Below, one piece after another: positions 24,001 through 27,000 of a DNA stretch of 64,000 bases. The DNA is from Escherichia coli O157:H7 (lineage in GTDB: Bacteria; Pseudomonadota; Gammaproteobacteria; Enterobacterales; Enterobacteriaceae): the NCBI RefSeq assembly GCF_013167455.1, contig NZ_CP038328.1, one strand, 5' to 3'. Numbering within the stretch: the stretch's first letter is position 1; each line of letters opens with the position of its first letter. Position numbers: made by a program.

Positions 24001-27000
24001 CGACCTGGTGGCAAACCAGTATGTCATGGCGCTTTACTGGCCGGTTTCCTCTCTGCCGCAGGGTGTCACCCTGACAGGGGATGCAGGGAATAATCTGCTG
24101 GCATCGTTCTACATCCAGACAGACGCAAAAGACCTGAATGTGATGTACCACAATGCAAAAGTGGCAACAAATAACCAGAAACTGGGAACCTTTGGTGCAT
24201 TTGATAATGAATGGCATACGCTGGCCTTCCGTTTTGCAGGAAATAACAGCCTTCAGGTTATTCCGGTTATTGATGGTCAGGATGGTGCCGCGTTTACCCT
24301 GACGCAGTCACCAGTAGGAACTTTCCCGGTGGACAAACTCCGCGTAACGGATATCACAAAAAATGCAACTTACCCGGTGCTGATTGACAGCATTGTGGTG
24401 GAAGTGAAAAAAGCGGTAACAGAATAAAAAAATCCCGCCGGTCATGATATGGCTGGCGGGAGCTACCTAACCCATAAAGGAAAATAAAAATACTCCCGAA
24501 GGAGTGGTTATCAGTCGCTTCGATGTTTTTACCCGATAACGAATTATGTAGTCAATATCAAAGGTAAGGTTATATGACATTCGTTCATACAATGCTGCTT
24601 TATTTCTGCGCAGTGGTCAGTGCGTTATATCTGGTGAGCGGCGGTTATAAGGTCATCAGAAATTATATTCGCCGTAAAATTGATGATGCGGCAGCTGAAA
24701 AACTCAGTAAAACAGCACAGGCACCGTCATCCCCAAACGACCCGACCCCGCTCTGATAACGGGGCAATATACCTGCAAAAGGAGAATATTCATGCCAGAG
24801 ATTAAAGGCACGGTTACTGAAGAGCTTGTCAAACAGGCACTTTATTCTGAAGAAGTGAACCGCGTGCTGAAGGCGCAGGTTCGCAAGGATTTTGAGGCAC
24901 AAATCGACGCATATGTTGATGAAGTGCTGGCCCGAATGGTTGGCCATTCTCCGGCTGAAAACAGCACGGAGAATGAGCCTCAAGCCGTAGAGCAACCAGA
25001 GCCGGTTCAGCCCGGAACTGACGGTACTATGATGTAACAATACCGACCGGCAGGTTTCCCTGCCGGGTGAATTTGTTAATGCACGTTTTGTGTACTTTCC
25101 CTCCGGGGAGAACAGGCAGGACATATCAGCATCCTGAAACAGGACGCATTTTGGGGTTTGTATGTCTTGCCATTTTGAGATCGAGAACGGCGATAGATGA
25201 GCTGTAAGGGAGTCTTACAGGCAGGGCAAACAGGCTCTTTATCCATGTAAAGATCTCCTTTTTATGCATCTCTGCTTTACAGGAGACCGGGGAATATCAT
25301 AGGATACGACACGAGCTCGAAGTAAAGCATTGATGCGAATTTGTTCCAGGTCCAGATAGCTGTAACTATCTGGACCTCCCTTTATGTAGTATCCTGTTGA
25401 TTTGAAACATACTACATATACGCGCGATCCTACCTTCACTGTATAAAAAGTCAATAAAATGATCATTTTATGATCGTTTTCACCACCTAAGTCTTCGTTT
25501 TCTTTAAGTAAATAATCACCGCCCTGAATCATTGTTGATGACTTTTCAATCTATTTGTTGTATCAATTAAACAAATCGAATCGATCGTTTTTGTCGATCG
25601 ATTGCATGAGAAAGGCATCAACAACAAAGCAGGAGGTTATGCGGCCATGTATCGAAACATACGGTGCCGACACTGCAATAAGCTACTGGCACGGGCCAGT
25701 TTCAGTTATCTGGAAGTAAAATGTCCGCGCTGTAAAACCCTCAATCAAATCACATCTCCGAGCGCCACAGAGCACCCCACATACACAAGGAAATCCTGTC
25801 GTGGGGAACAGAAAGCAAGTCACATCCCGTATCATCAGCACGCCTGAACTTCGGAACGACCTGAAAAAAGCCTGTTCATTGCGGATTCCTGTCCTGGGTT
25901 TAGTGCTGTTCGATCAGTTCATCCAGCTTTTTCTGGCTCGTTTGCAGCGTGCCAGGGAGATCGGCTTTACCTACGGTGACGTTATGCACCATGGAGCTCA
26001 CCACCCCAGACCCCGTCACATCGCCCATGCGGGTAAATTTTTTATCCCCTACTGCGCCAAAGACCTGAATATTCGGCAGTTCACCGATTAACTGATTTGG
26101 CAGTTCACCCAGCGCCTTAATAACGTCGTTGTCTTTCCAGGTGGAAGTAGTGACAACCGCTTTGTTCACCGGCAGCGCCGCGCCTGGCGACATCATCACC
26201 CAGTCGGCAATGTTGTCTGCCTGCTCCATAAAGGTGACAAATTTTTCAGCCGCTTCCGTTTCTTCAGTCTTTTGTCCGGCGGTAATGGTCAGCGAGGTCA
26301 ACATGCCGTAGACGGCAGAGTTTTTCTCGGTTGGCACCACGAAACCGACGTTTTTCGGATCGCCTTCTTTAATCACAGCCGGAAGGATATAGGTGGAGTA
26401 AATCGCCATCGGCGCGGTGCCGTTCATAAAGGCGTCTTTCACTTCCATGATGTCGTTAGAACCCGGCATGGTGTTGGCAGCAAGGTCGCGGTAATAGGTC
26501 AGCGCCTGCATCATCTCTGGTGAATCAAGGGTGATTTTGCCTTCGGCGTTAAAGACGTTGGCCTAGTTGGATAACGCAAACTGGGAGAAGGATTGTTCCG
26601 TCAGCACGCTTTCTGCCGTAGGCAGCGCAATACCGTATTTTTTATTCGCCGGGTCATTCAGTTTCTGTGCAACGTCCAGCAGCTGTTGCCAGTTTTTCGG
26701 CTCCTCCAGCCCCGCTTTTGCCAGCACATCTTTGCGATACCAGATGCCGCCAATCCAGGCGCTGACAGGAACACCGGTCCATGCGCTACCATCTTCGGTA
26801 CGCACAATACGCAGTACGCCATCGTAAAACGCGCCTTCACCAACGTTGCTGATGACCGTGGCAACCGCCTTGCGATCGATAAGCTGCTCTTTGTCCATAA
26901 CTTTGGCGTAGTCATGACTGGTTTCAATCACTTCCGGCAGCGAGCCGCTACGTGAAAGAGTGATGACTTTGGTGTTATAAGCGTCCTCTTCGACGGGCAC

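Follow-up and report, generated by a model that had tools for sequence, protein, structure and literature searches.

Between an esterase gene and a gene for a 60-aa membrane protein in Escherichia coli O157:H7, the minus strand carries two hairpins and a promoter-like site, and the question is what kind of element these leftward signals make up. The initial annotation read them as a short antisense RNA over the leader of the small protein, in an arrangement reminiscent of type I toxin-antitoxin loci. Our analysis of the window, by which we mean the whole stretch of DNA that was analysed (64 kb, a Mu-like prophage), leads to another answer: the region is very probably a leftward small-RNA gene within a mobile esterase cassette, and the RNA is a genuine but unremarkable Hfq-dependent sRNA of prophage origin that is already catalogued as EcOnc37. 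Sequence comparison showed no difference between positions 24350-24610 and prophage Sp18 of Sakai, where the esterase gene is annotated as ECs_4993. The rightward genes of the cassette are as follows.

22379-24427, plus strand: sialate O-acetylesterase-like gene, 682 aa (Pfam SASA PF03629 and DUF6645 PF20350)
24425-24427, plus strand: esterase stop codon TAA
24574-24756, plus strand: DUF1378 small membrane protein, 60 aa (Pfam PF07125, E = 1e-38; phrog_494, function unknown)
24792-25037, plus strand: DUF826 protein, 81 aa, third gene of the cassette (Pfam PF05696; phrog_311)

Further to the right, a minus-strand gene occupies 25532-25076, and the hairpin that follows it (25047-25066) lacks a good minus-strand U-run.

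Both leftward hairpins and the TTGACT-N18-TAAAAA site of the initial annotation are present on the minus strand. In the direction of leftward transcription, the predicted gene is composed as follows.

24550-24555, minus strand: -35 element TTGACT of the predicted leftward sRNA promoter (sequence and conservation)
24526-24531, minus strand: -10-like element TAAAAA, 18 nt from the -35 element (sequence and conservation; putative promoter function)
24427-24519, minus strand: predicted full-length sRNA of about 93 nt (EcOnc37 of Sakai Sp18), from about 7 nt 3' of the -10 element to the U-tail
24506-24519, minus strand: 5' single-stranded region AGCGACUGAUAACC, unpaired in the short-form fold and a candidate seed
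24492-24505, minus strand: stem-loop 2, ACUCC-UUCG-GGAGU, 5 bp (-6.6 kcal/mol, z = -2.45; a terminator scan match)
24462-24491, minus strand: U-rich single-stranded linker AUUUUUAUUUUCCUUUAUGGGUUAGGUAGC, inside the EcOnc37 peak and probably the Hfq-binding site
24433-24461, minus strand: stem-loop 1, the main Rho-independent terminator hairpin (-14.7 kcal/mol, z = -2.9)
24426-24432, minus strand: U7 terminator tail, read from the sequence, overlapping the esterase stop codon

The hairpin next to the esterase gene had been placed at 24436-24464; the structure is there, about 3 nt away from this position. On the plus strand its arms read TCCCGCCGGTCA and TGGCTGGCGGGA, with the A7 of 24426-24432 just 5' of them, and on the minus strand seven GC-rich closing pairs followed by U7 give it the form of an intrinsic terminator. 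The A-run, of 6-9 bases, is invariant in both alignments made (A1 and A2), the core CCGCCRG/CYGGCGG is kept in 22 distinct variants, and of 146 related loci, 144 have an A-run with a GC-rich hairpin directly 3' of the esterase stop codon. The outermost pair of the stem covaries (CG in 8 variants, GC in 5, AU in 3). The terminator core is conserved by descent, and covariation, confined to this one pair, adds little. Stem-loop 1 has a C.A mismatch on the minus strand where the plus strand forms a G.U pair, and the 97-nt segment folds more strongly as plus strand (-32.7 kcal/mol, z = -3.6) than as minus strand (-26.5 kcal/mol, z = -2.1), so that some constraint may act on the esterase mRNA.

Of the two minus-strand terminators that had been proposed, stem-loop 1 is the clear one and stem-loop 2 the weaker. 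The latter, which runs into the U-rich AUUUUUAUUUU (24491-24481, minus strand), is borderline as an intrinsic terminator, with an A preceding the U-run, and, because its stem comprises only 5 bp, it is probably a weak and leaky one. The Hfq peak lies downstream of it, which implies that it is read through. Stem-loop 2 is specific to the Sp18-type variant, and in one allele (L080, on the same contig as L019) two changes allow an alternative 4-bp stem, CUAC/GUAG. A motif of the window linker, UUCCUU(U/A)AUGGGUU, recurs in the other Mu-like variant (L002), the P2-like variant (L003) and some lambdoid variants (L004), and a stretch related to it, UUCCUUUAUUUUUUCUCCAUAGGUA, is found in the 933W type. 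Hfq has been reported to bind U-rich single-stranded RNA located 5' of a paired region (Tree et al.). The two hairpins are better read as an internal stem-loop and a single true terminator, joined by a U-rich linker that would bind Hfq. A weak plus-strand terminator candidate at 24501-24521 was also considered; it depends on G.U pairs, its pairing is not conserved in other variants, and it was put down to chance.

The promoter-like site TTGACT-N18-TAAAAA spans 24555-24526 on the minus strand, and within the 64 kb of the window the pattern TTGACW-N17/18-TAAAAA matches only here, where chance would give 0.02 matches. The generic promoter scan of the window did not call this site because its second hexamer, the non-canonical TAAAAA, lacks the highly conserved final T. 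TTGAC[A/T]-N17/18-TAAAAA occurs in 36 of 41 distinct intergenic sequences, at a distance from the terminator that would give RNAs of 64-104 nt, and on this sequence evidence the window element appears to share a conserved promoter at that spacing with the other esterase-convergent sRNAs. The -35 element is retained in prophage PP2 of E2348/69, where no DUF1378 gene comes next.

With few exceptions, the related esterase genes examined are followed by this same layout, whether the prophage is lambdoid, P2-like or Mu-like. Intergenic sequences of this kind average 57% column identity, and the invariant columns form islands: the A-run with CCGCC, the TTT of the -10 element (invariant across nine divergent intergenic classes), GT.AA of the -35 element in the footprint alignment, and the SD/ATG. 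This conservation is the strongest argument, among those that the sequences offer, that the predicted elements are more than chance matches. The window element lies immediately 3' of a SASA-type esterase gene and is convergent with it, and the U-tail of its Rho-independent terminator falls at the esterase stop. An esterase-PasA/PasC-holin arrangement has been described as common (Zhu et al. 2026). The sequence comparisons indicate that the sRNA module travels with the sialate O-acetylesterase-like gene, and that gene and convergent sRNA pass as a single unit among lambdoid, P2-like and Mu-like phages.

Experimental information on the RNA comes from a published catalogue. Table S2 of Tree et al. 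2014 lists EcOnc37 in Sp18, on the minus strand at 5077340-5077410, as present in all five of five CRAC datasets. These coordinates refer to an older Sakai record, and the current one is 128 bp longer; the shift of +128 was calibrated on the AsxR position and the EcOnc27 probe (1.27 Mb), the EcOnc33 probe (1.56 Mb) and the EcOnc42 probe (2.92 Mb), and at EcOnc37 (5.08 Mb) it follows from this calibration up to 2.92 Mb together with the total length difference. With the offset so extended to 5.08 Mb, the peak would fall at 24418-24488 of the window, covering the terminator and the U-rich linker, and the RNA would be one that Hfq binds in vivo. The assignment of the leftward RNA to EcOnc37 is based on this calibrated coordinate conversion and on the identity to Sakai, and users of the 2014 table should be aware of the 128-bp offset from the current record. 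The "Rho Term" column of the same table was set aside as evidence, since its "x" appears to mean that none was predicted: the clear terminators of AgvB and AsxR have no mark, and PasA homologues whose terminators are also clear are given an "x". A search of full-text literature for EcOnc37 or ECs4993-4995 returned nothing, and the window element had no match in Rfam. Of the original interpretation, the part that predicts a short non-coding leftward transcript in the spacer from the esterase gene to the 60-aa ORF is supported, by a conserved promoter and terminator and by the minus-strand Hfq peak in Sakai as placed by the coordinate conversion.

Transcription would start about 7 nt downstream of the promoter-like site, near 24519. 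The RNA is predicted to lead from a 14-nt single-stranded 5' end through the small UUCG stem-loop into the U-rich linker, and it would stop at the strong intrinsic terminator with its U-tail over the esterase stop, at a length of about 93 nt; a fraction may end after the small stem-loop, at about 35 nt. In the lysogen, Hfq would bind the RNA on the linker and the terminator, as the converted coordinates of the published crosslinking suggest. Its most likely mode of action would be in trans, through limited pairing with RNAs of the host or the prophage, by analogy with AgvB, AsxR and HnrS and with the RIL-seq partners of PasA. Other prophage sRNAs in the same EHEC/EPEC catalogues have proved to rewire the regulation of the host, AgvB and AsxR by antagonising core sRNAs and HnrS by relieving the silencing of virulence genes by Hha/H-NS. 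The Sp18-type alleles differ mostly in the candidate seed at 24506-24519, where a 3-nt insertion and several substitutions were found (L012, L013, L075 and L081). Pairing of the predicted sRNA in trans with the start regions of DUF1378, DUF826, the esterase gene, the minus-strand gene and com did not exceed the level of shuffled sequences (z from -1.0 to +1.3). The terminator may also block leftward transcription antisense into the esterase gene.

An action in cis appears unlikely. Here the sRNA would pair with the spacer of about 93 nt in an esterase-DUF1378-DUF826 transcript and direct its cleavage or decay. If the cis reading were true, the small membrane protein genes would be uncoupled or silenced in the lysogen, or timed relative to lysis; the hairpin would be constrained on both strands, in line with its plus-strand G.U pairs; and the esterase-sRNA-DUF1378 cassette would be a self-regulating mobile unit, loosely similar to a type I toxin-antitoxin system.

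It is similarly improbable that the locus holds no dedicated sRNA gene and that the hairpins end or insulate leftward read-through from further right, for example from the gene at 25532-25076, thereby shielding the esterase gene, with the Hfq-bound species being a stable 3' end. The hairpin at 25047-25066, given its poor minus-strand U-run, would permit read-through across DUF826 and DUF1378, and the -10-like hexamer is non-canonical. Furthermore, the 5' end of PasA is said to come from processing of a longer transcript, and by this analogy the window RNA, too, could be the 3' end left by processing instead of arising as a primary transcript. However, the promoter-like site is kept at a fixed terminator distance in the 36 of 41 distinct spacers mentioned above, as part of the islands of invariance, and it persists where the Mu-type minus-strand gene is missing, in lambdoid and P2-like surroundings. 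In addition, the length rule that gives 94 nt for the window RNA gives 80 nt for EcOnc33, its homologue in Sakai Sp6, which is close to the approximately 71 nt observed by Northern blotting.

Having set these two alternatives below the leftward sRNA gene, we consider the type I toxin-antitoxin-like pair that had originally been proposed, and find it highly improbable. DUF1378 would be the toxin, and the leftward antisense RNA would bind and block its mRNA leader. The DUF1378 protein is small, with a single hydrophobic N-terminal helix and a polar tail, and the locus shares with type I loci (hok/sok, tisB/istR, zorO/orzO and others) a small hydrophobic ORF with a short non-coding RNA encoded next to it on the other strand. 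If the esterase gene and DUF1378 are co-transcribed, the sRNA would be fully complementary to the spacer of about 93 nt upstream of DUF1378, and the two genes have no plus-strand terminator between them. In some type I systems the antitoxin pairs with the toxin mRNA in its 5' UTR, away from the ribosome-binding site.

However, the two parts are not inherited jointly, as they dissociate both ways: tblastn finds no DUF1378 in three prophages that carry the sRNA module (E2348/69 PP2, Sakai Sp12 and Sakai Sp4), and DUF1378 homologues occur at four loci (L071-L074) that have neither the esterase gene nor, within 200 nt upstream, a leftward terminator. The RNA predicted from 24519 to 24427 would end 55 nt upstream of the DUF1378 ATG and leave the SD uncovered, and its duplex with the DUF1378 start region is no better than those of shuffled sequences (z = +1.1), so that the overlap concerns only the upstream spacer of a read-through transcript. 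An anti-SD in the plus-strand leader was sought as well, and in the fold the SD pairs with downstream coding sequence and not with the region covered by the sRNA, which speaks against the suggested antisense effect over the leader. The promoter scan revealed no separate plus-strand promoter for DUF1378, and in this, too, the locus differs from type I loci with their dedicated toxin promoter. Searches with DUF1378 against NCBIfam and PADLOC gave no hit of note and no toxin or defence family; these resources and PHROGs hold no functional annotation for it, and the literature on DUF1378 gives no function. DUF1378 is a neighbour of the sRNA, and a partnership between the two is not supported.

There is likewise very little probability that the hairpins serve the plus strand, by stabilising or processing the 3' end of the esterase or late transcript, with the leftward terminator shape incidental: two G.U pairs of stem-loop 1 exist only on the plus strand, whose fold is the stronger one, and the C.A mismatch of the minus strand is there a G.U pair, intermediate between the A-U and G-C of other variants, yet the invariant A-run just 5' of the hairpin has no obvious role in a stabiliser and fits a leftward U-tail exactly, minus-strand RNAs ending at the site have been detected (the minor PasA 3' end and the EcOnc33, EcOnc51 and EcOnc52 peaks), and a plus-strand stabiliser would in any case be compatible with the leftward sRNA gene that we favour.

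This leftward sRNA gene can be compared with several known prophage sRNAs. AgvB and AsxR (RF02702 and RF02703) resemble the window RNA in being short Hfq-binding prophage sRNAs convergent to late-region cargo genes ("moron" sites), and in combining a variable 5' end with a conserved 3' terminator. They differ in their location 3' of stx, on the upstream side of the esterase gene, and have their own conserved 3' domain, GCCCGAACCCACUCGGGC. Covariance models of RF02702 and RF02703 had no match in 23800-25800 at E values up to 10, and the window RNA is not assigned to either family.

A likeness in layout is offered by PasA and PasC of EPEC E2348/69, which are leftward Hfq-dependent sRNAs convergent with an esterase gene, as is the window RNA (Pearl Mizrahi et al. 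2021; Zhu, Shabalina and Storz 2026). PasA is encoded on the minus strand between the esterase gene and a holin gene, in a "> < >" arrangement, and the locus has a major 3' end at 743415 and a minor one at 743264, the latter exactly at the esterase stop (743265). The PasA locus thus has two successive leftward terminators, the second at the esterase stop, comparable to the layout in the window. The esterase-proximal module of PP2 can be aligned with the window element in the terminator region, and EcOnc51 and EcOnc52, the EHEC homologues of PasA and PasC, fall on this same module. However, DUF1378 and DUF826 are both missing from PP2, where the promoter-terminator modules form a tandem pair, and PasA has RIL-seq partners, whereas none are on record for the window RNA. 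Layout and terminator core are all that is shared with PasA and PasC, and there is no BLAST-level similarity to PasA: searches with the spacer of the window retrieved no PasA loci, only Sp18-type sequences and a small number of relatives with approximately 72% identity. Rfam has no family for PasA or EcOnc33.

EcOnc33 of the lambdoid Sakai prophage Sp6 occupies the same site in the same orientation, between the esterase gene ECs_1527 and the DUF1378 gene ECs_1528. The probe used for it corresponds to the plus strand of the esterase-DUF1378 spacer, so the RNA detected on the Northern blot is leftward. As in the window, there is a promoter pattern (TTGACA-N18-TAAAAA), a terminator core (CCGCCGG/CCGGCGG) and a U7 near the esterase stop. 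The body of the RNA is largely different in sequence, the UUCG stem-loop with its U-run is missing, and the prophage is lambdoid and not Mu-like. EcOnc37 itself (Tree et al. 2014) comes from the same type of prophage, the Mu-like Sp18, on the same strand and from identical DNA. Its published entry consists of a crosslinking peak only, and the promoter and structure are predictions made here. The practical value of these predictions is modest, and EcOnc37, as the Mu-like-prophage copy of a conserved module, gains a predicted promoter, structure and size as well as relatives with which it can be compared.

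The window covers the right end of a Mu-like prophage, in which baseplate and tail-fibre genes are followed by a gene for a Gin-like invertase (21728-22288), a three-gene cargo and com. The cargo genes are:

22379-24427, SASA/DUF6645 sialate O-acetylesterase-like gene (cargo gene 1)
24574-24756, plus strand, DUF1378 gene encoding a 60-aa membrane protein (cargo gene 2)
24792-25037, DUF826 gene (cargo gene 3)

Prophage Sp18 of E. coli O157:H7 Sakai shares 98.5% identity with the segment 20950-25851 and matches 24350-24610 exactly. A spacer of 146 nt separates the esterase stop (24427) from the DUF1378 gene (24574). 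Among 5,426 complete E. coli genomes, 188 carry this spacer, and in 174 of these the match covers at least 80% of its length. Inspection of the spacer sequence identified three minus-strand elements:

24555-24526, minus strand, promoter-like TTGACT-N18-TAAAAA
24505-24492, minus strand, hairpin 2, a 5-bp stem with a UUCG loop, followed by AUUUUUAUUUU
24461-24433, minus strand, hairpin 1, long and GC-rich, followed by U7 that overlaps the esterase stop codon

The initial annotation had noted two minus-strand hairpins and a promoter-like match at this site, and this observation is correct, since the elements are present, the hairpins have folding energies of -14.7 (hairpin 1) and -6.6 kcal/mol (hairpin 2), and the promoter pattern is matched once in the 64-kb window versus 0.02 times expected by chance; hairpin 1 had been placed with an offset of 3 nt.

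The leftward RNA that had been predicted from these elements is supported by the conservation of the promoter-terminator pair and by an Hfq peak on the minus strand of Sp18. RNA crosslinked to Hfq in Sakai was reported by Tree et al. 2014, including EcOnc37, a crosslinking peak that was assigned to the Sp18 minus strand at 5077340-5077410 in 5/5 datasets. These coordinates are based on an older Sakai record of 5,498,450 bp, whereas the current one has 5,498,578 bp. The shift was calibrated with features of known sequence, namely, AsxR and the EcOnc27 probe (1.27 Mb), the EcOnc33 probe (1.56 Mb) and the EcOnc42 probe (2.92 Mb), all of which agree with +128 and none with zero shift; EcOnc52 at 1.18 Mb agrees with a shift of 0. 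Relative to NC_002695.2, Table S2 of Tree et al. 2014 is thus displaced by +128 bp from between 1.18 and 1.27 Mb onward, and the simplest reading is that one 128-bp difference in this interval accounts for the entire length difference. With the offset extended by inference to 5.08 Mb, EcOnc37 corresponds to 5077468-5077538 of the current record and to 24418-24488 of the window, a stretch downstream of hairpin 2 that includes the U-rich linker and the main terminator. In the text copy of Table S2, an 'x' in the 'Rho Term' column apparently denotes the lack of a predicted terminator.

With its start most probably near 24519, the RNA would consist of a single-stranded 5' end of 14 nt, within which most differences between Sp18-type alleles are located, the UUCG stem-loop, a U-rich linker with the motif UUCCUU(U/A)AUGGGUU common to other variants, and the terminator, a four-part build that is usual for Hfq-dependent sRNAs. 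Of the two terminators initially proposed, hairpin 1 retains this role; because the Hfq peak lies past hairpin 2, the latter and its U-run are better seen as an internal stem-loop and Hfq site, and partial termination there may yield an RNA of about 35 nt.

The same module occurs downstream of related esterase genes. Of 146 regions downstream of such genes, taken from viral contigs and reference genomes, 144 have an A-run (at least 6 bases) and a GC-rich hairpin immediately 3' of the stop, and 36 of 41 distinct spacers contain a minus-strand TTGAC[A/T]-N17/18-TAAAAA, with predicted RNAs of 64-104 nt; the predicted length is 94 nt in the window type and 80 nt in the case of EcOnc33. The probe for EcOnc33 has the plus-strand sequence of the spacer that separates the esterase and DUF1378 genes in Sakai Sp6, and the RNA detected, about 71 nt on a Northern blot, is therefore leftward. 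When nine divergent spacers were aligned (mean column identity 57%), the columns without variation were those of the A-run/CCGCC, -10 TTT, -35 GT.AA and SD/ATG; the terminator core CCGCCRG/CYGGCGG owes its conservation to common descent, with covariation only at the outermost pair. The Hfq-dependent sRNA PasA of EPEC E2348/69 is encoded on the minus strand between esterase and holin genes, and esterase-PasA/PasC-holin is a common arrangement (Zhu et al. 2026). PasA has two 3' ends, a major one at 743415 and a minor one at 743264, which lies exactly at the esterase stop (743265). The PasA locus (E2348/69 PP2, locus L007, 2760-3060; also Sakai Sp12, L009) has two tandem paralogous promoter-terminator modules, of which the one nearer the esterase carries a TTGACA-N18-GAAAAA of its own and might produce an independent RNA, about 64 nt long; EcOnc51 and EcOnc52 apparently belong to the latter module rather than to PasA proper.

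The esterase-sRNA-DUF1378 cassette is present in Mu-like, P2-like and lambdoid prophages. Its differing insertion places, between lysis and tail genes (P2-like; L003, E. coli JNEC-KY174), between gin/tail-fibre genes and com (Mu-like; L002) and before the holin gene (lambdoid; L004), suggest that it moves as a unit. In an E. coli O158:H23 prophage (L005, 2890-3290), a truncated DUF1378 remnant precedes a further A-run/hairpin/promoter module, whose stem (CGCUGCCG/CGGCAGCG) differs, and an intact DUF1378 gene, which looks like a recombination scar with a duplicated module.

Further observations concern the prophage end. Sp18 homology stops at 25851 (Sakai 5078909), about 50 nt inside mom; com is retained, whereas mom and the right end are absent, suggesting that a deletion removed the right end of the prophage. 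Beyond 25851, a sugar-binding-protein gene appears to be disrupted; its two minus-strand ORFs (25900-26514 and 26563-27192) are presumably ycjN, with ycjM next. The minus-strand gene at 25076-25532 (phrog_26524, unknown function) is broken into ORFs of 97 and 56 aa and contains a perfect 12-bp inverted repeat, AGGTCCAGATAG-CTGTAA-CTATCTGGACCT (25348-25377); its counterpart in strain 2003-3014 is annotated as frameshifted, and the Sakai copy, ECs_4996, as one 465-nt coding sequence.

Instead of being a primary transcript, the leftward RNA could derive from longer leftward transcripts as their stable 3' end, since the -10 hexamer departs from the canonical form and processing has been reported for PasA. 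Hairpin 1 may have a role in the esterase mRNA as well, its pairing being stronger on the plus strand because of G.U pairs. Two such pairs are C.A mismatches on the minus strand, and at one position other variants have A-U or G-C; the window type has the look of an intermediate state with a wobble pair, neutral for a plus-strand RNA only. A type I toxin-antitoxin-like pair with DUF1378, as initially suggested, is left with only a small residual probability. The module is linked to the esterase gene and not to DUF1378, occurs without DUF1378 in E2348/69 PP2, Sakai Sp12 and Sakai Sp4, and ends its RNA 55 nt before the DUF1378 ATG, while four DUF1378 homologues in other phage contexts lack both the esterase and an upstream leftward terminator; no special complementarity of the RNA to the DUF1378 start region was found, the folded plus-strand leader gave no connection between the SD and the sRNA-covered region, and DUF1378 has no functional annotation or similarity to toxin/defence families.

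The possible 3'-end origin and the plus-strand pairing of hairpin 1 leave the main conclusion unchanged: the locus encodes a leftward, Hfq-bound RNA of a well-described kind, already catalogued as EcOnc37. This study adds its assignment to a conserved esterase-tied module across three phage types, a predicted promoter, structure and size, and a coordinate correction. We infer that it would act in trans by base pairing with host or prophage RNAs, for which AgvB, AsxR and HnrS, characterised members of the same catalogues, provide the model.
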